A DNA stretch of 64,000 nucleotides, taken from NCBI GenBank assembly GCA_039985655.1, contig JBDWSF010000002.1, positions 54,047 through 118,046 on the forward strand, given 5' to 3'. A program made the position numbers and the translations under genes. This DNA comes from Algibacter sp. (GTDB lineage: Bacteria > Bacteroidota > Bacteroidia > Flavobacteriales > Flavobacteriaceae). The number at the start of each line of letters is the position of its first letter. Position 1 is the stretch's first letter. The notes beneath the pieces were generated by a model. That model saw only the letters and a list, made by a program, of their open reading frames with translations, was not told the origin of the DNA and searched no databases. Below are positions 55,824 through 62,094 of this stretch, piece by piece.

Positions 55824-56219
55824 ATGCCATTAGTAAGAATAAGTTTACCAAATAAATTCACAAAGAAAACAAAGGATGATATCTCGATTTCTGTTCATAA
55901 ATCATTGATTAAAGAATTTAATATTCCTGAAAATGATTATTTCCATATTATTGAAGAATTAGAGTCTGAGCAAATTAAATACCCAGAAAAGTATTTAGAA
56001 ATTCAACATACCTCAGATATTATTTATGTTCAAATTATTGCTGGACAAGGACGGACATTAGAACAAAAAAAGAAACTGTATCATGAAATTGCCACTCAAG
56101 TAAGTTCTTCAAGCTCAATCACCAAAAATAATGTAATAATTACACTCCTTGAAAATAACGGAAGAGAAGACTGGTCCTTTGGTAACGGAGAAATTCAAGA
56201 ACCTAAACACTTGAAATAA
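55824..56219 (+). CDS. tautomerase-superfamily protein (4-oxalocrotonate tautomerase-like, long form)
   Basis: 131 aa. It begins MPLVRISLP (an N-terminal Pro after Met removal is the catalytic hallmark) and has a beta-alpha-beta-like duplicated layout. Confidence 0.6.
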   Translation: MPLVRISLPNKFTKKTKDDISISVHKSLIKEFNIPENDYFHIIEELESEQIKYPEKYLEIQHTSDIIYVQIIAGQGRTLEQKKKLYHEIATQVSSSSSITKNNVIITLLENNGREDWSFGNGEIQEPKHLK

Positions 56220-56431
56220 ATGAAAATATCGAATATTGACAAAACATTAAACAACGTAGTGCAAGATAAAAAGTAGGCGTAAAACTTGCTTTTTTAACAG
56301 GAGATGAGGACATGTCCGTTTTTGCAATTGAGTTAAAAAGAGGTCAATTTATTCCTGCTCATTATCATAAAATAGGAATTGAAGCCTACTTTATCTTGTT
56401 TGGTGAAGGAATTGTATCAATAGGAAAATAA
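56220..56431 (+). pseudogene. cupin-domain gene relic (frameshifted and truncated)
   Basis: MKISNIDKTLNNVVQDKK* continues after a 1-nt shift as VGVKLAFLTGDEDMSVFAIELKRGQFIPAHYHKIGIEAYFILFGEGIVSIGK*. The H-x-H...E cupin motif 1 is present, but the second half of the barrel is missing. Confidence 0.5.
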
Positions 56432-56822
56432 ATAGAGAGCAATTAGTTTGAGAATACTGGGAAACACAAAAACAATTACAGTTAAAACTATAAGCTAGTA
56501 AACAGATGCGTTAAGGATTGCAGTGGAAAGCCCACAGCTCGACGAAGGAGATGCGAGGACTTGAAATGAAAAGCCTGACCCGCAGGGGAACGTCCAAATT
56601 ATTTTTACGCTCATTTTAAAACTCAAAGCATTTAAAATTCGTGGCTAAATGTTTTTCTGCACAACCAAATCAATACACATAAAAACGCTATTCTCGACAA
56701 TACCTTATAAACTTTCAAATTAATATTAGCTTTTTTAATAATATGATAATATAGAATAGGTTATATCAAAAAATGATGTGTAGTCTATTTATTCTATTTA
56801 TATTTGGGCAGATAAAAAAACA

Positions 56823-56870
56823 ATGATAAATAATAACAACACTAATAATTTCAATAATCCTAATTGCTAG
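56823..56870 (+). CDS. candidate leader peptide MINNNNTNNFNNPNC (15 codons, 9 Asn)
   Basis: The ORF runs from ATG 56823 to TAG 56868-56870, read codon by codon. It lies between a TATATTTG box (56799-56806) and the antiterminator/terminator segments upstream of the gatC-like gene. Confidence 0.45.
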   Translation: MINNNNTNNFNNPNC

Positions 56871-56935
56871 GGTTGGAAGGTTGTTGTTTAAACATATATA
56901 AATAAAGCCTTCCAAATTTTGGAAGGTTTTTTTTT
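56871..56935 (+). promoter_or_regulatory. candidate attenuator: antiterminator segment, shared middle segment and terminator
   Basis: TTGGAAGGTT occurs twice (56873-56882 and 56919-56928). Both copies are complementary to CCTTCCAA (56908-56915), so the two helices are mutually exclusive. Confidence 0.5.
56905..56935 (+). terminator. intrinsic terminator 43 nt upstream of the gatC-like start codon
   Basis: CCTTCCAA (56908-56915) pairs with TTGGAAGG (56919-56926) around a 3-nt loop. Nine consecutive T follow (56927-56935). Confidence 0.75.
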
Positions 56936-56977: not shown

Positions 56978-57247
56978 ATGAGTAAAATTATGACAGTCGA
57001 CATCTTGTCGAGTATTAAAGGAGCACAGCCCTCTGAGGCCGTTAGCAAATTATTTGATGTGATTAAAAATGCGCATCCAACAACTAATAATTCTTTTAAT
57101 AACGCGAATAATAATGCGGTGTCTTTATCAGATTTAAGAGATGATGTTGTTATTGAAAGTTCGGCAATAGAAAAACAAATTATTAAAGAAAACTTTCCGA
57201 ACGAAAAAAACGGATTTCTAGTCGTATCTAAAGTTATAGAAGAATAA
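56978..57247 (+). CDS. gatC: GatC-like small subunit (divergent)
   Basis: 89 aa. The C-terminal LRDDVV...NFPNEKNGFLVVSKVIEE matches the GatC tail (LREDxV ... NAP ... F-x-VP-x-VIE), but the N-terminal half is divergent. The stop lies 1 nt before the gatA ATG. Confidence 0.55.
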   Translation: MSKIMTVDILSSIKGAQPSEAVSKLFDVIKNAHPTTNNSFNNANNNAVSLSDLRDDVVIESSAIEKQIIKENFPNEKNGFLVVSKVIEE

Positions 57248-57248
57248 T

Positions 57249-58649
57249 ATGGATTCTCAAATAAAACACATACACCAGCAGTTGGTGGATAAAAAAATAA
57301 CGTGTACCGCTTTAGTACAAGGTCGATTGGATTTACTAAAACAAAATACACATAATACGGTTAATTCGCTTTTAGATACTACAGCATTAAAATTGGCTGC
57401 AAAAGTAGATGCTAAAATAGCTCATGGCGAAACTATTGGTTTGCTTGAAGGTATTCCGTTTGGAATAAAAGATGTGTATATGGTTCAAGGCACCTACACA
57501 ACAGCGAGCTCAGATTTATTAAAAAATTATAAATCGGCTTACACAGCAACGGCTATTCAAAAATTATTGGATGCTGGCGCCATTCCTTTGGTAAAAGAAA
57601 ACTGTGATAGTTTTGGTCATGGATCATCTAGTGAAAACACCATTTTTGGAGCGGTTAAAAATGCTATCAACCCCCATTTAGTTGGTGGTGGTTCTAGCGG
57701 CGGTTCTGCTGTAAACGTTGCTAAAGATTACACCGTGTTTTCTATTGGTGGCGATACTGGTGGTTCTGTGCGTCAACCCGCAGGTTACAATAATATCTAT
57801 GGTTTAAAACCGACTTACGGACGTATTTCACGTTTCGGATTAATGGCATACGCATCGTCTACAGATTGTGTTGGTCCTTTAGCAAAATCTATCGAAGATA
57901 TTAGAATTGTGCTGAATGTGATGAGTGGTAAAGATGTTAAAGATCAAACGACTTACGCTTCCGCGGAAATAAAAGATGACAGTATTTCAAATTCCGAAGG
58001 CATTAAAACAATCGGGTATTTTAAAAACTTTATTGAAAGTGACGCTATTGATGCTCAAGTTAAATCTGATTTTTTAGATGCTATTGAAAAAATAAAAGCC
58101 AAAGGCATTGAAGTGAAAGCACTCGATTTCTTAGAAGCTAATACGTTAGTTTCTACTTATTATACTTTGGCTATGGCAGAAACGGCCTCTAACCTATCGC
58201 GTTTAGATGGTACAAATTATGGTGAACGTATTGAATCTGGAACTTTAAAAGAAACTTATTCAGTAACCCGTTCTGAAAATTTCTCTGAAGAATCAAAACG
58301 CAGAATTGTTGGTGGAAACCAAGTATTATCTCAAGGTTTTTCTGATGAAATTTACCTAAAAGGATTAGCGCTTAGAGATCAAATTTCTGAGAATTTCGAA
58401 AAAGATTTTAATGAAGTTGATATTATCCTTTCGCCAGTTACACCAAGCACTCCTCCAAAAATTGGAGACAGTTTAAAAGACCCACATGCCATGTACTTAT
58501 CTGATGCCTACACGGTTGGTTTTAGCTTAGGGCAATTACCAACACTTACGGTACCACAAGGCACAGCAACTGGTTTACAAATTAGTGCTGCAAAAAATAA
58601 TGATGAACTTGTTTTGAAGTTTGCTAACTTCCTAAAAGACACGATATAA
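57249..58649 (+). CDS. gatA: amidase-signature protein, GatA-like subunit of Asp-tRNA(Asn)/Glu-tRNA(Gln) amidotransferase
   Basis: 466 aa. It has GIPFGIKD, the GGSSGGSA amidase signature, GGDTGGSVRQPA and a GatA-like N-terminal helix. Its stop overlaps the next start (TAATG). Confidence 0.85.
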   Translation: MDSQIKHIHQQLVDKKITCTALVQGRLDLLKQNTHNTVNSLLDTTALKLAAKVDAKIAHGETIGLLEGIPFGIKDVYMVQGTYTTASSDLLKNYKSAYTATAIQKLLDAGAIPLVKENCDSFGHGSSSENTIFGAVKNAINPHLVGGGSSGGSAVNVAKDYTVFSIGGDTGGSVRQPAGYNNIYGLKPTYGRISRFGLMAYASSTDCVGPLAKSIEDIRIVLNVMSGKDVKDQTTYASAEIKDDSISNSEGIKTIGYFKNFIESDAIDAQVKSDFLDAIEKIKAKGIEVKALDFLEANTLVSTYYTLAMAETASNLSRLDGTNYGERIESGTLKETYSVTRSENFSEESKRRIVGGNQVLSQGFSDEIYLKGLALRDQISENFEKDFNEVDIILSPVTPSTPPKIGDSLKDPHAMYLSDAYTVGFSLGQLPTLTVPQGTATGLQISAAKNNDELVLKFANFLKDTI

Positions 58650-61600
58650 TGGATTTAGAACAATTAAACGAAGCGCTTAAAGCTCACGAATTAGAATTGG
58701 TAATCGGAATTGAAACTCATGTCCGTTTAAATACCAAAACCAAATTATTTTGTTCTTGTCCAAATCAAGAAATTGATACACCTAACGAAAATATCTGTTC
58801 GGTGTGTACGGGACAAATGGGTGTTTTACCGTCTATTAATAAAGAAGCGATTACAAAGGCGATTTATTTTGGTAAAGCTGTTAAATCGACTTTTGAAAAC
58901 GAGACTATTTCTTGGGATCGTAAACATTACGAATATCCAGACAATCCGAAAAACATACAAATTACGCAGTTTCATAATCCTGTGATTCCTGACGGACAAG
59001 TCTCTTGTTACCGTAATGATGGGTCTCAGTTTACTGTAAACCTAACGCAGGTTCATATCGAAGAAGATGCTGCTAAATTAATGCACGAAAAGAAAACCTC
59101 TTTAGTCGATTTTAATAAAGCAGGCGTACCGCTTATTGAAATCGTTACAGAACCTTGTATTCGTCATATCGAAGATGCATCAACCTATGCACAATACATT
59201 CAGCGTATAGTCCAAAATTTAAAAATATCTGAGGCTAACCTTGAAAAAGGAGAGTTTAAATCGGATGTTTCTGTATCGCTTCGTAAAAAGCATACTTACG
59301 AATTAAATCCACGTACCGAAATTAAAAACTTAAACTCGTTTAAGTTTATGGTGGATGCTTTAAAAGAAGAAATTGAGAAACAATTAAACTACTTTTTAGA
59401 GCACAAAGAATTTAGACAAGACCAAACCACGGTTTTATGGGATGCTGAATTGAAGCAAACCAAAACCATGCGTAAAAAAGAATTTGAAGCGGATTACCGT
59501 TTTATTTCTGAACCAGATTTGCCTTTCGTAAATATTAAAGATGTTGTGGAGTCTATTGATGTCGATTTAAGCACGCTGCCTTACGCCGTTGAATCTATTT
59601 TAATTAAAGGAGGTGTATTACCGCAAGATGCTAAATTCTTTACTGCAGATTCGTTACGTTCGGAAACTTTTGTAGCTATAAATAACGAAATTAGAGATCC
59701 ATCTTTTGTTGCTAAAACATTAGTAAATAATATTGGTGCTGATGATTATGCCGATATACATAGAATAGAACATCTTATTGAAATATTCCAACTTTTTAAA
59801 GATGAAAAAATAACATCGGTTTTAGTTCAAAACGCCATTACTTCATATTTAAAAGATAGAAGTTTTGATTACAATAAATATTTTGAAGACAACACCATTT
59901 CTGAATCTCAGATTGGAGATGCTATTCAAAAAGTAATTTCAGAAAATGAAGCCGTTGCTAATGACATCAAAGGCGGCAACCAAGGAAAAGCAGGTATTCT
60001 TGTTGGGAAAGTGATTGCTATTATTGGTAAAGGTGCTTCAGGAAAAGTGATTCGTCAAGGGATTTTGGATGCGCTTGCCGGAAAAGAAGTTGGAAGCACG
60101 AAAAACGAAGCGAGCAACAGTGGCGAGCAAAAAGCAAAAGGCCAAGAGCCAAGAGCCAATGAAGAAGAAATACTTCCAGAGATTCCATTAATCATTAAAG
60201 AAGAATATCGAACACATAAAATATCCGATTTATCGGAAAGCTCAATTTCAGAAACAGTAACGCTTGCCGGTTGGGTATCTAGTGTACGTGATCATGGTGA
60301 ATTGATGTTTATTGATTTACGAGATTCTAGTAACGAGATTTTTCAAGTCCGATTAAGTAGAGAGTCTTTTGCTAATCTAGACGATCTTGTAAAGTTAAAA
60401 CCAGAATCGGTAATTACCGTTACAGGAACCGTTGTACAGCGTAAAGAAGACGATTATAATGCATCGCTTCGCGCAGGAACGATAGAATTAGAAACCTCTG
60501 ATTTAGATATCTTAAACCTATCTAAAACCTTGCCTTTCGAAATTAAAAGAGCAACAAAAACAAATGAATCTGTACGTTTTCAATATAAATATCTAGATCA
60601 TAGAAATGATGATGTTCGTAGAGCCATGATCAATCGTCACAAAGTGATTAAATTGATGCGTGATATTTTAGACGATCAAGAATTTATAGAAGTAGAAACA
60701 CCAATATTAACTGCTGGTACTGATGAAGGTGCTAGAGAATTTATTGTACCTACGCGTAAAAAAGCGGGATCTTTCTATACATTACCACAAGCACCTCAAC
60801 AATTCAAACAAATTTTGATGGTGTCTGGGTATGAGAAATATTTCCAAATAGCGCGTTGTTTTAGAGATGAAGATTCTCGTGGCGATCGTCAACCAGAATT
60901 CACACAATTAGATATTGAAATGGCGTACGCCAGTATGCAACAAATTATAGATTTGAACACCACCATGTTCAATGACATTGTTAAGAAAATATACGGCAAA
61001 AAATGGATTTTACATCCGTTTGAAGTCATTACCTATAAAGATGCGATGGATAAATATGGTTGTGATAGACCAGATTTACGTTTCGGATTACAAATGCAAG
61101 ACATTACTGAAATTGTAAAAGAAACAACCTTCCAAGTATTTAGTAAACCTATAGACGATGGTGGAATTGTAAAATGCATCAAAGTATCCAAAGAGGAACA
61201 AGGTAAAAAGCGTTTATCTAAAGGTCAGATTGAAAAATTGACAGCTACGGCACAACAACATGGCTTAGGTGGTTTAGCTTATATTATTGTTAATGAAAAC
61301 GATTTACAATCACCAATCATTAAATTTTTAGGTGAAGACATTGCTTCTGGAATTATTACTGCAACAAACGCGCAAGTTGGAGATATTGTATTCTTTTCTG
61401 CTGCCGATTATGACACAGCTAATAAAGCGTTAGATGCTGTTAGACAAGAATTAGGTGCGATGCTTAGATTAATTAATCCAAAGGAGTTAAGACCTGCTTG
61501 GGTTGTAGATTTCCCAATGTTTGAAAAAACAGACGAAGGCCGTTGGACATTTACTCATAATCCGTTCTCTATGCCTGCAACATATGATATTGATAAACAT

Positions 61601-61987
61601 ATGAATGGTAAAGAAGACGAAATAGGAAGTATAATCGCGCAACAATACGATTTAATATTAAACGGTTTCGAAATTGGTGGAGGTTCTGTCCGTGCTCACA
61701 AACCTGAAATTCTTGAAGCGACCTATAAGAATATGGGTTACAATAAAGCGGAGATGCTTAGAAGTGTTGGTACCATGTACGAAGCATTCCATTACGGCGC
61801 ACCACCACACGGGGGTATTGCTTGGGGTGTAGATCGATTAATGATGATTTTAGAGAAAAAAGCATCTATTAGAGAAGTGATGGCTTTCCCAAAAACTGGA
61901 ACTAGTGAAGATTTATTATTTGGCTCTCCTTCACCGCTCTCAGATAAAAAAATTGAAGAAATGAATGTTAGAGTGATTAGAAAATAG
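58649..61987 (+). CDS. fusion protein: GatB-like amidotransferase subunit (about aa 1-475) + linker + complete bacterial-type aspartyl-tRNA synthetase (about aa 520-1112)
   Basis: The GatB blocks are VIGIETHVRLNT.TKLFC, DRKHYEYPDNPKNIQITQ, HIEEDAAK, GVPLIEIVTEP, EIKNLNSF, ADYRFISEPDLP and a YqeY-like tail. A low-complexity linker follows (GSTKNEASNSGEQKAKGQEPRANEEE). The AspRS blocks are the OB-fold (LAGWVSSVRDHGELMFIDLRD), QAPQQFKQ, motif 2 (FQIARCFRDEDSRGDRQPEFTQLDIEM), a GAD insertion and motif 3 (GGGSVRAH ... GIAWGVDRL). It is one uninterrupted 1112-codon frame. Confidence 0.9.
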   Translation: MDLEQLNEALKAHELELVIGIETHVRLNTKTKLFCSCPNQEIDTPNENICSVCTGQMGVLPSINKEAITKAIYFGKAVKSTFENETISWDRKHYEYPDNPKNIQITQFHNPVIPDGQVSCYRNDGSQFTVNLTQVHIEEDAAKLMHEKKTSLVDFNKAGVPLIEIVTEPCIRHIEDASTYAQYIQRIVQNLKISEANLEKGEFKSDVSVSLRKKHTYELNPRTEIKNLNSFKFMVDALKEEIEKQLNYFLEHKEFRQDQTTVLWDAELKQTKTMRKKEFEADYRFISEPDLPFVNIKDVVESIDVDLSTLPYAVESILIKGGVLPQDAKFFTADSLRSETFVAINNEIRDPSFVAKTLVNNIGADDYADIHRIEHLIEIFQLFKDEKITSVLVQNAITSYLKDRSFDYNKYFEDNTISESQIGDAIQKVISENEAVANDIKGGNQGKAGILVGKVIAIIGKGASGKVIRQGILDALAGKEVGSTKNEASNSGEQKAKGQEPRANEEEILPEIPLIIKEEYRTHKISDLSESSISETVTLAGWVSSVRDHGELMFIDLRDSSNEIFQVRLSRESFANLDDLVKLKPESVITVTGTVVQRKEDDYNASLRAGTIELETSDLDILNLSKTLPFEIKRATKTNESVRFQYKYLDHRNDDVRRAMINRHKVIKLMRDILDDQEFIEVETPILTAGTDEGAREFIVPTRKKAGSFYTLPQAPQQFKQILMVSGYEKYFQIARCFRDEDSRGDRQPEFTQLDIEMAYASMQQIIDLNTTMFNDIVKKIYGKKWILHPFEVITYKDAMDKYGCDRPDLRFGLQMQDITEIVKETTFQVFSKPIDDGGIVKCIKVSKEEQGKKRLSKGQIEKLTATAQQHGLGGLAYIIVNENDLQSPIIKFLGEDIASGIITATNAQVGDIVFFSAADYDTANKALDAVRQELGAMLRLINPKELRPAWVVDFPMFEKTDEGRWTFTHNPFSMPATYDIDKHMNGKEDEIGSIIAQQYDLILNGFEIGGGSVRAHKPEILEATYKNMGYNKAEMLRSVGTMYEAFHYGAPPHGGIAWGVDRLMMILEKKASIREVMAFPKTGTSEDLLFGSPSPLSDKKIEEMNVRVIRK

Positions 61988-62012
61988 ATATATTTCTCTT
62001 ATAAAAAACAAA

Positions 62013-62041
62013 AGCTTCAGATCACTCTGGAGTTTTTTGTT
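62013..62041 (+). terminator. probable intrinsic terminator after the gatB-aspS fusion gene
   Basis: AGCTTCAG-loop-CTGGAGTT forms a stem with one G-U pair, followed by a T-run (TTTTTTGTTTT). Confidence 0.55.
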
Positions 62042-62094
62042 TTATAAATATAATTAAATACATAAAGCTAGAGGTTAATCTATACCTTCTCAGT

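Follow-up and report, generated by a model that had tools for sequence, protein, structure and literature searches.

How is one to understand a bacterium that carries the amidotransferase subunit GatB and a complete aspartyl-tRNA synthetase (AspRS) in a single polypeptide, and what would such a protein do? The question is raised by an operon in a 64,000-nt stretch of contig JBDWSF010000002.1 of Algibacter sp. (Flavobacteriaceae), here called the window, in which positions are counted from the first letter. Three open reading frames (ORFs) follow one another on the + strand, at 56978-57247 (89 aa), 57249-58649 (466 aa) and 58649-61987 (1112 aa). The TAA of the first lies 1 nt 5′ of the ATG of the second (TAA-T-ATG, read directly in GAATAATATGG), and the TAA of the second overlaps the ATG of the third as TAATG at 58647-58651 (read directly in ATATAATGGAT). 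A first-pass annotation, made from the letters of the DNA, had described three coupled ORFs with these two junctions, and the ORF list and the junction sequences agree with it: the operon consists of a divergent GatC, GatA and a GatB-linker-AspRS fusion of 1112 residues, and it is translationally coupled. The reading favoured here, to which we would give a probability of roughly 0.7, is that these genes encode a complete machine for making Asn-tRNA(Asn) from Asp on the tRNA, in other words, a covalently tethered Asn-transamidosome.

That GatB and AspRS are fused in a single frame, as the annotation had proposed, is borne out by Pfam and NCBIfam domains and by the recurrence of the fusion in other genomes. 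The GatB moiety (residues 1-477; 58649..60079, + strand) comprises a cradle domain, a helical domain and a YqeY tail, with Pfam matches to GatB_N (PF02934) at residues 17-298 (E 1.6e-91) and to GatB_Yqey (PF02637) at residues 371-474 (E 2.2e-9). Its scores against the GatB equivalog models lie just over the curated cut-offs (346.7 bits for TIGR00133, cut-off 314.8; 398 for NF004012, cut-off 338), and the combination of cradle and YqeY tail argues for membership of the GatB family. This half matches chain 3h0l_B at 253 bits, and the AlphaFold model has Foldseek template-modelling (TM) scores of 0.71-0.78 to GatB chains. The motifs E-x-H, RK-Y-YPD-PK, H-EED, E-IVT-P and R-x-D-x-N-x-S are those which we take to be catalytic or metal-binding in GatB; the fusion keeps G-I-E-T-H, RKHYEYPD (of the RK-Y-YPD-PK block), HIEEDAAK and IEIVTEP, and the divergent motifs singled out in the first-pass annotation, DRKHYEYPDNPKNIQITQ and HIEEDAAK, are both present. 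In all Bacteroidota fusions, the R-C-D-x-N-x-S motif reads K-S-D-V-S-V-S, with Ser in place of Asn, a change common to the nearest standalone GatB (P0183) and to a fused cluster at 41% identity. Since the standalone protein has it too, the divergence of GatB is a trait of the subfamily and not a decay that followed fusion.

The AspRS moiety (residues ~513-1112; 60185..61987, + strand, stop codon at 61985-61987) had been called a bacterial-type enzyme, and an OB fold, a class II core, motifs 2 and 3 and a GAD insertion are all matched. Pfam places the OB fold (PF01336) at residues 537-607, the class II core (PF00152) at 639-1083 (E 6.7e-106) and GAD (PF02938) at 831-928, and this set of OB anticodon domain, class II core and GAD points to an AspRS of the bacterial type. 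The AspS equivalog models give 712 bits for NF001750 (cut-off 443) and 650 bits for TIGR00459 (cut-off 374), and the motifs FRDEDSRGDRQPEF and GGIAWGVDR are present. Alignment scores are 449 bits to the AspRS of Thermus thermophilus and 446 bits to the non-discriminating (ND) AspRS of Pseudomonas aeruginosa; in the AlphaFold model, this half has Foldseek TM scores of 0.80-0.84 to bacterial AspRS.

Between the two halves runs a flexible linker (residues ~478-512; 60080..60184, + strand), which is closed by a conserved EE-x-LPEIP. The low-complexity linker of the first-pass annotation reappears as the least conserved bin in an alignment and as a stretch of low confidence in the structural model. 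Across 15 fused proteins it is the sole poorly conserved bin of 40 residues, at 0.46 versus at least 0.70 elsewhere (at least 0.8 in most bins), and both its sequence and its length vary, with the frame always kept. The AlphaFold model of the fusion has a mean predicted local distance difference test score (pLDDT) of 77 and confident cores in both halves; residues 478-509 are the only long inter-domain stretch with a pLDDT below 50 (31-40). No ATG occurs in frame between residue 440 and M553, so that a separate and intact AspRS would have nowhere to begin.

The other two subunits of the amidotransferase are encoded just upstream. The gatA gene (57249..58649, + strand, 466 aa) specifies the glutaminase subunit, of the amidase-signature family (Pfam Amidase, E 1.4e-110). 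Its best NCBIfam model by far is TIGR00132, at 425.6 bits, under the equivalog cut-off of 481.1, and the motifs that hold the catalytic Lys, cis-Ser and Ser are intact (IPFGIKD, GGSSGGS and DTGGSVRQP). The position of this ORF beside those for GatC and GatB supports its assignment to GatA. The gatC gene (56978..57247, + strand, 89 aa) encodes a divergent subunit of which only the C-terminal ~38 aa are recognisably GatC. Taken alone, it scores under the curated cut-offs (Pfam E 0.005; PF02686 17.6 bits against 23; TIGR00135 E 0.002). All members of its 16-member family match the Pfam GatC model PF02686 (best E 9e-6), and a profile-profile comparison (hhalign) between the family and the GatCs of related operons gives a probability of 90.6% and an E of 1.3e-6 over the C-terminal 38 aa; the gene lies directly 5′ of gatA in 16 of the 16 Bacteroidota loci. 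Its identity as GatC is supported by the family-level matches to PF02686 together with the encoding of a small protein alongside gatA. A kinship of the family to TALE and designed helical repeats, which came up in a PDB profile search, was rejected: it sums weak repeats, with no significant single domain. Residues 1-36 of the GatC-like protein (56978-57085; LSSIKGAQPSEAVNKLFDVIKNA) are invariant across genera but do not resemble canonical GatC, and this N-terminal half is possibly a contact specific to the fused complex.

How widespread is this arrangement? More than 240 full-length fusion clusters (90% identity) were found, in two sets of at least 120 each. The first set, at 87-100% identity, covers Algibacter, Flavivirga, Tamlana, Thalassobellus, Pseudotamlana, Mariniflexile and others, many of them on megabase contigs, and the second consists entirely of Polaribacter; the window protein itself is 100% identical to one from a metagenome-assembled genome (MAG) of Algibacter sp. 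Deeper fused clusters, with identities of 58%, 41% and 37%, emerged from an all-against-all search of representatives, the 37% cluster being from Aminipila (Clostridia), and among the matches listed there were fusions of the same architecture from distant lineages at 34-68% identity. The hosts among the genome matches listed include Flavobacterium restrictum, Wenyingzhuangia, Gaetbulibacter, Aestuariibaculum and Seonamhaeicola, a MAG of Arcticibacterium (Cytophagales), a Bacteroidales MAG, and MAGs of Bacilli and Bacillota. The order gatC-like, gatA, fusion is kept in all 16 Bacteroidota loci, and Aminipila has an identical gene order with the same stop/start overlap. A survey of this kind had been proposed in the first-pass annotation, together with the caveat that the fusion may be an ordinary arrangement: it is widespread in Bacteroidota genera and occurs in some Bacillota, and within the genera that carry it the caveat holds. 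The novelty assumed at the time is lower, since NCBI RefSeq already gives the fusion a bifunctional product name. The architecture is registered in RefSeq, UniProt and Pfam, so that the gene itself is not a discovery; no paper on a GatB-AspRS or gatB-aspS fusion was found in the searchable literature. The operon is thus a genuine covalent form of the transamidosome, one that databases list but that is uncharacterised.

Loci in related bacteria bear on the origin of the fusion. A Bacillota MAG (L020:1266-8240) has a separate full-length aspS directly 5′ of gatC-gatA-gatB::aspS, and therefore two AspRS domains in one cluster. Two Clostridia (L051, L078) have unfused aspS-gatC-gatA-gatB operons, and in a Patescibacteria MAG (L035) aspS is followed by gatB. 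The existence of fused, unfused and mixed loci in related Bacillota makes a fusion between operon neighbours a plausible origin. A 1029-aa protein of Bacillota MAGs (P0130) was considered as a diverged fusion and rejected; it is a complete HisRS (tRNA-synt_His and HGTP_anticodon) joined to a complete bacterial AspRS.

In the mechanism proposed here, the AspRS moiety would charge tRNA(Asn) as well as tRNA(Asp) with Asp, GatA would hydrolyse glutamine, and the GatB moiety, attached to AspRS by a tether of ~35 residues, would phosphorylate and amidate the Asp on the same tRNA; Asp-tRNA(Asn) would in this way be converted before reaching the ribosome. The divergent GatC would clamp GatA to GatB, and the tether would join the GatB tail to the anticodon domain of AspRS, that is, two modules that bind the body of the tRNA. 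Because AspRS is a dimer, the expected particle would be (GatC-GatA-GatB~AspRS)2, a hard-wired Asn-transamidosome, and AsnRS would be left to charge free or salvaged Asn. The physical association of AspRS with GatCAB, which characterizes a transamidosome, can here be read from the sequence as a conserved covalent link between AspRS and GatB. A role in the synthesis of Asn-tRNA(Asn), and not of Gln-tRNA(Gln), is indicated by the AspRS fusion partner, by an Asn-rich leader (see below) and by the single glnS in the Flavobacteriaceae looked up.

The components and the presumed chemistry are those of the known Asn-transamidosomes of T. thermophilus (3KFU), P. aeruginosa (4WJ3) and Helicobacter pylori (PMC3367201), namely, AspRS, GatC, GatA, GatB and tRNA(Asn), and the fused halves match the AspRS (4wj3_M) and GatB (4wj3_B/E) of the P. 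aeruginosa particle in both sequence and fold. The known complexes are non-covalent, and that of H. pylori is dynamic (PMC3367201), whereas here GatB and AspRS are one polypeptide, so their association would be independent of tRNA and of weak dynamic contacts. The window also differs from these systems in that its GatC is strongly divergent and in that the host of the fusion has AsnRS and GlnRS as well. Another covalent link between AspRS and a GatCAB subunit has been catalogued, the AspRS-GatC fusion NF009460 / PRK12820, in which GatC is C-terminal to AspRS, whereas in the window protein GatB is N-terminal; the latter was rejected as a member of that family, as it scores 462.5 bits against a cut-off of 1379, over the AspRS region only. 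The GlnRS-YqeY chimera of Deinococcus radiodurans (PMC1865053) likewise joins an aminoacyl-tRNA synthetase covalently to a tRNA-binding module derived from GatB. The chimera has the YqeY tail only and no amidotransferase activity, whereas the entire catalytic GatB is fused in the window.

An important question is whether the AspRS moiety accepts tRNA(Asn). A presumed signature of ND-AspRS, H31/G82, was compared with the PDB sequences of solved enzymes. The VRDHGE of the anticodon domain carries a His that is invariant in the fused family and that occurs, within RDHG(G), in all four solved Asp/Asn enzymes (that of P. aeruginosa and three mycobacterial ones); the position is Leu in the discriminating T. 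thermophilus enzyme and Lys in that of Elizabethkingia. This His is suggestive of an ND-like AspRS moiety. The signature is half matched: the Gly of PEG in the four solved ND enzymes corresponds to Asp (KEDD) in the fusion. An ND-AspRS is always accompanied by an amidotransferase (PMC6523644), and this AspRS is both fused to GatB and encoded in the same operon as GatC and GatA. The Asp-binding QSPQ is QAPQ in all fused proteins (LPQAPQ, fusion residues 712-717, at 60782-60793 of the window). QAPQ was also seen, among the matches listed, in standalone AspRS of Saccharibacteria, Verrucomicrobia/Akkermansia, Chlorobium, Rickettsiales and Lachnospiraceae, which are mostly lineages reliant on GatCAB.

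From where did this AspRS come? It is 38% identical to the AspRS of Elizabethkingia (6wom) and 37-40% identical to the Thermus, Pseudomonas, Escherichia coli and mycobacterial enzymes; identity rises to 63% with P0361, a housekeeping AspRS of a Peregrinibacteria MAG, the gene for which has hisS, argS and tsf as neighbours and no gatB in its vicinity. Both the fusion and this protein have the QAPQ variant of QSPQ; motif 2 is the same in the two and motif 3 almost the same. These comparisons set the AspRS half apart from the native Flavobacteriales type. Base composition carries no sign of a recent transfer (G+C content 35.5% in the operon, 36.8% in gyrB and 32.2% in the window). A standalone match (P0124) was tried as the native aspS of Flavobacteriaceae and rejected, its nearest named standalone relatives being candidate-phyla bacteria; in the single genome scan, the AspRS genes among the matches listed are all of the QAPQ type, owing to the peptide patterns used.

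The region 5′ of the operon suggests how its expression might be controlled. A mini-ORF, MINNNNTNNFNNPNC (56823..56870, + strand), has 15 codons, of which 9 are for Asn and none for Gln, and ends with a TAG at 56868-56870; it is the only ORF of at most 20 codons with at least 7 Asn in the 64-kb window, where 0.015 would be expected according to first-order Markov simulations. Just 5′ of it lies a candidate Bacteroidota-type -7 promoter box, TATATTTG (TAnnTTTG; 56799..56806, + strand), and the box TATCTTTG / TATATTTG is aligned in all 8 of the leaders from genomes; TAnnTTTG is assumed to be a promoter on the strength of the known Bacteroidetes consensus. A small hairpin (ATCCTAA / TAGGGT; 56857..56873, + strand) spans the last leader codons and the stop and is a possible pause or ribosome-sensing hairpin. 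Then, 4 nt past the stop, comes the anti-terminator arm GGAAGGTT (GGAAGG; 56875..56882, + strand), which can pair with CCTTCC at 56908-56913, and finally an intrinsic terminator, AAAGCCTTCCAAATTTTGGAAGG followed by T9 (56904..56935, + strand), with a stem of 12 pairs and a T-run that lies 42 nt 5′ of the gatC-like ATG. The alternative anti-terminator fold has a predicted energy of -15.1 kcal/mol versus -14.0 for the terminator.

The leader, arm and terminator are found in 8 of the 16 Bacteroidota genome loci (Algibacter, Flavivirga, two Mariniflexile, two Polaribacter, Aestuariibaculum and Seonamhaeicola), and homologous leaders hold 7-14 Asn, with the consensus M-x-x-N-N-N-N-(R/N)-N-F-N-N-P-N-x. 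A metagenome scan for the RNA signature gave 80 loci, 71 of which have an Asn leader. The gatC-like and gatA genes follow directly in 70 of the 80, that is, in 69 with a leader plus one (L122) in which the leader is lost at the end of the contig; of the other 10, two are too short downstream to be judged and eight are chance matches with neither leader nor terminator. Among the 80 matches there was no case of the attenuator standing before another gene such as asnS or asnB, although a pattern derived from this family would miss diverged attenuators. In 58 distinct leaders, the helices of the attenuator have 92.6% pairing as against at most 67% when the partners are slid. In the stop-codon hairpin (helix 1), the core pairs are invariant or compensated (C-G 50, U-A 4, U-G 4), and in the terminator (helix 2), 97.6% of cells are paired and the closing pair is A-U in 37 and G-C in 13. 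Doubly changed cells number 20, compared with 5.9 in shuffles, and none of 500 shuffles reaches 20. The anti-terminator arm is conserved in all leaders; its arms were fixed in the search pattern of the metagenome scan, so covariation there is uninformative.

We conclude that the leader and terminator form what would be a ribosome-mediated attenuator sensing Asn-tRNA(Asn), as one would expect where Asn-tRNA(Asn) is itself what the operon makes. With Asn-tRNA(Asn) in good supply, a ribosome at the leader stop would cover GGAAGG, the terminator (CCTTCC/GGAAGG) would form, and transcription would stop; when it is scarce, the ribosome would stall on the Asn codons, GGAAGG would pair with CCTTCC, and the polymerase would read into gatC-gatA-gatB::aspS. 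The E. coli pheST leader is a leader-peptide attenuator of an aminoacyl-tRNA synthetase operon. The window shares with the Thr_leader and Phe_leader attenuators a short ORF rich in the regulatory codon and mutually exclusive anti-terminator and terminator hairpins, and differs from them in its Asn codons, its Bacteroidota host, its simpler layout and its anti-terminator arm 4 nt past the stop. Membership of these two Rfam families was rejected, as the sub-threshold matches at 56821-56935 (28.3 bits for Phe_leader, 26.2 for Thr_leader) are far under the gathering threshold of 55. No T-box or other known riboswitch reaches the Rfam gathering level in the window or in six related loci, no Asn-leader family turned up in Rfam 15, and nothing on Asn leader attenuation in Bacteroidetes was found in the searchable literature. 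There is a precedent for Asn-responsive control of an aspS-gatCAB operon in that of Clostridium acetobutylicum, which is under an Asn-responsive T-box (Saad et al. 2012, J Biol Chem 287:20382, as reported in PMC4206432). As reported there, an ND-AspRS and GatCAB are encoded on one transcript, a shortage of charged tRNA(Asn) induces them, and Asn synthesis is tRNA-dependent, which is also what is proposed here; the difference is that the clostridial genes are unfused and the T-box reads uncharged tRNA, whereas the window has a predicted translated leader of Asn codons with a terminator and an anti-terminator.

The other 8 of the 16 loci have no Asn leader. Six of these (Thalassobellus, two uncultured Flavobacteriaceae, F. 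restrictum, Wenyingzhuangia and Gaetbulibacter) share a CTTT(C/T)GTAATTT box, more fully (A/C)TTT(C/T)GTAATTT(T/C)(A/G)C, ~40 nt 5′ of the gatC-like ATG (L001:8250-8300, L009, L010, L011, L012, L013), which is probably an ordinary promoter of the Bacteroidota kind; neither the leader nor this box is present in Arcticibacterium or in the Bacteroidales MAG. The presence of a promoter box in place of the attenuator implies two regulatory variants of the operon within one family. The conditional expression through an upstream attenuator put forward in the first-pass annotation is supported in about half of the lineages. In Mariniflexile aquimaris (L007:3205-3330), an extra G+C-rich palindromic element of ~110 nt (GCCCCACCCGGAATTATAAAAATAATTCCGACCTCCCCGAAGGG...) lies between the attenuator terminator and gatC.

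Is this operon the only route to Asn-tRNA(Asn) in its hosts or a second one? A survey of 547 genera (PMC4206432) counts aspS, asnS, glnS, asnA, asnB and gatCAB, on the basis of UniProt and KEGG annotation validated by BLAST. Twelve Flavobacteriaceae rows of its Table S1 were looked up, and eleven of them (Flavobacterium, Gramella, Zobellia, Cellulophaga, Croceibacter, Aequorivita, Lacinutrix, Krokinobacter, Maribacter, Nonlabens and Zunongwangia) read gatCAB 0, aspS 1, asnS 1, glnS 1 and asnB at least 1. The exception is Polaribacter sp. MED152, with asnA 0, asnB 0, gatCAB 1, aspS 1, asnS 1 and glnS 1, and with Y for U1-A72 in tRNA(Asn). The MED152 chromosome encodes the fusion (P0532). In addition, Bacteroidetes are absent from the table in the same survey of genomes with at least two AspRS. 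The premise of the first-pass annotation that Flavobacteriia have dispersed gatA, gatB and gatC plus a standalone aspS does not fit these rows, since gatCAB is 0 in eleven of the twelve; nor does its suggestion of a second pathway fit the counts for MED152. Together, the eleven genomes without gatCAB, the MED152 counts and the absence of Bacteroidetes from the extra-AspRS table favour the view that, at least in MED152, the operon is probably the only GatCAB, the fusion the only AspRS and transamidation the only means of Asn synthesis. For carriers of the operon in general, the model has it as most likely the sole GatCAB, probably the sole AspRS and, with AsnA and AsnB missing, the sole source of newly made Asn. 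A broader and more tentative proposal, to which we give slightly less than an even chance, is that a large block of marine Bacteroidota (Polaribacter, Algibacter, Flavivirga, Mariniflexile, Tamlana and others) has exchanged its native discriminating AspRS and its asparagine synthetase for one horizontally acquired, obligate, single-chain GatB~AspRS module, which would be both sole AspRS and sole maker of Asn, under a new class of Asn-codon attenuator.

Several points weigh against these proposals. In the enzyme itself, the Ser at the canonical Asn of the GatB R-C-D-x-N-x-S motif and the position of GatA and GatC below the NCBIfam equivalog cut-offs might mean an altered activity, the second of the presumed ND-signature positions is Asp instead of Gly, and the charging of tRNA(Asn) by the AspRS moiety is something that we infer from its sequence. 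In the leader, the arms of the predicted anti-terminator pairing, having been set by the search pattern, lend it no independent covariation support. As regards gene content, the status of sole AspRS rests on one genome, MED152, and on annotation-based counts, and a native aspS could be the gene counted if the fusion had been filed only as gatB. Finally, an Asn attenuator is an odd control for an AspRS that is both sole and essential, although basal read-through would be enough, and the attenuator is missing from half of the lineages.

A rival reading is that the operon might be an accessory pathway, with a housekeeping discriminating aspS (perhaps with asnB) elsewhere in the genome, the fused operon being conditional and its AspRS moiety maybe dedicated to tRNA(Asn). 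Such an arrangement would fit the Asn-responsive attenuator in the window and the acquisition of the operon as a module, as suggested by the identities of its AspRS half (38% to Elizabethkingia against 63% to the Peregrinibacteria enzyme); it would also fit the patchy distribution of the fusion within Flavobacteriaceae, and even within Flavobacterium, the separate aspS beside the fusion in the Bacillota locus L020 and the reliance of the aspS count in PMC4206432 on annotation. It is nevertheless unlikely. Typical Flavobacteriaceae are without any GatCAB to which this could be a second; the fusion-bearing MED152 scores aspS 1 and asnA/asnB 0 and does not figure among the genomes listed with at least two AspRS; within the operon, conservation across genera is highest in the AspRS half (82-97%), as an essential enzyme would lead one to expect; and half of the lineages drive the operon from a plain promoter region.

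The tethered transamidosome must also be weighed against the possibility that the fusion is without mechanistic meaning, adjacent gatB and aspS genes having been joined in a Rosetta-stone event, with the halves acting non-covalently or being proteolysed apart and with no channelling. The unfused aspS-gatC-gatA-gatB operons of Clostridia (L051, L078), the aspS-gatB adjacency in L035 and the existence of other AspRS fusions to operon neighbours, such as the HisRS-AspRS protein P0130, would all be in keeping with this, as would a linker that is long, disordered and poorly conserved. The sole break seen, which would be in keeping with it too, is in the metagenome contig L168 (5740-6060), where a ±1 frameshift within a repetitive ACAACCAAC tract of the linker separates gatB from aspS. 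In this split copy, the AspRS part has no start codon from which an intact enzyme could be made, and the break is therefore most likely an error or a lesion. Moreover, the frame through this fast-evolving linker is kept in hundreds of sequences from at least two phyla, the linker ends in the conserved LPEIP motif, and the order of the fusion, GatB tail to AspRS anticodon domain, links two tRNA-binding modules; a meaningless fusion is accordingly doubtful.

That the enzyme has a part in forming Gln-tRNA(Gln), alone or along with Asn-tRNA(Asn), as is the case for the GatCAB of most bacteria, is very improbable, even though GatCAB is generally dual-specific in vitro according to PMC4206432: glnS is 1 in all the Flavobacteriaceae rows checked in that survey, which also notes that the two routes to Gln-tRNA(Gln) are not known to be encoded together in any bacterium; GatB is fused to AspRS and not to GluRS; and the leader is rich in Asn codons with none for Gln. 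As for a sequencing or assembly artefact that removed a stop between gatB and aspS, which the first-pass annotation had wished to exclude, the L168 frameshift indicates that the low-complexity linker DNA is prone to indels, but the hypothesis is rejected as next to impossible, since the identical architecture recurs in the more than 240 independent clusters, many complete isolate genomes among them, and in distant lineages.

What appears to be new, then, is the probable role of the fusion as the sole AspRS and Asn-synthesis route in a large group of marine Bacteroidota, the non-native lineage of its AspRS and the dedicated Asn leader attenuator. Transamidosomes keep the toxic Asp-tRNA(Asn) off the ribosome, and since the known ones are non-covalent and often transient, channelling has been hard to study. 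A conserved mesophilic GatB-AspRS fusion, which would fix both stoichiometry and proximity, is a natural object for cryo-electron microscopy and kinetics. If the module did replace the native enzymes, it would be the first natural covalent transamidosome, with the first Asn attenuator, and a case in which a foreign fused module has taken the place of an aminoacyl-tRNA synthetase; should abundant marine Flavobacteriaceae such as Polaribacter have no other AspRS and no other route to Asn, the modelling of their amino-acid metabolism and auxotrophy would change. The Asn leader would join a small set of leader-peptide attenuators, in a phylum in which few have been described, and would offer a direct read-out of the status of Asn-tRNA(Asn). 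Against this significance stands the recognition and naming of the fusion by existing annotation pipelines.

A few features around these loci may be added. The operon ends with a terminator-like hairpin and T-run (62010..62045, + strand), in which a 12-pair stem, AAAAGCTTCAGATCACTCTGGAGTTTTT, is followed by TGTTTT. The Aminipila locus has a lysine riboswitch (L004:13154-13324, - strand) before dapA/dapB/DAPDH and a glycine riboswitch (L004:15793-15889, + strand) before a Na/Ala symporter gene; neither is out of the ordinary or connected with the fusion. Upstream of the operon in the window, just after a tautomerase gene (55824-56219), a 39-aa ORF at 56312-56431 (+ strand) with a weak Cupin_2 match (E 0.007) looks like the remnant of a cupin gene, which suggests that the long intergenic region may hold decayed genes. 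Within the 760-nt gap 5′ of the operon, a G+C-rich, structured-looking stretch at 56489-56584 (+ strand) has a sub-threshold match to the Flavo-1 RNA (RF01705) over the full length of the model (26.8 bits against a gathering threshold of 42, E 0.0024) and may be a diverged Flavo-1 small RNA.

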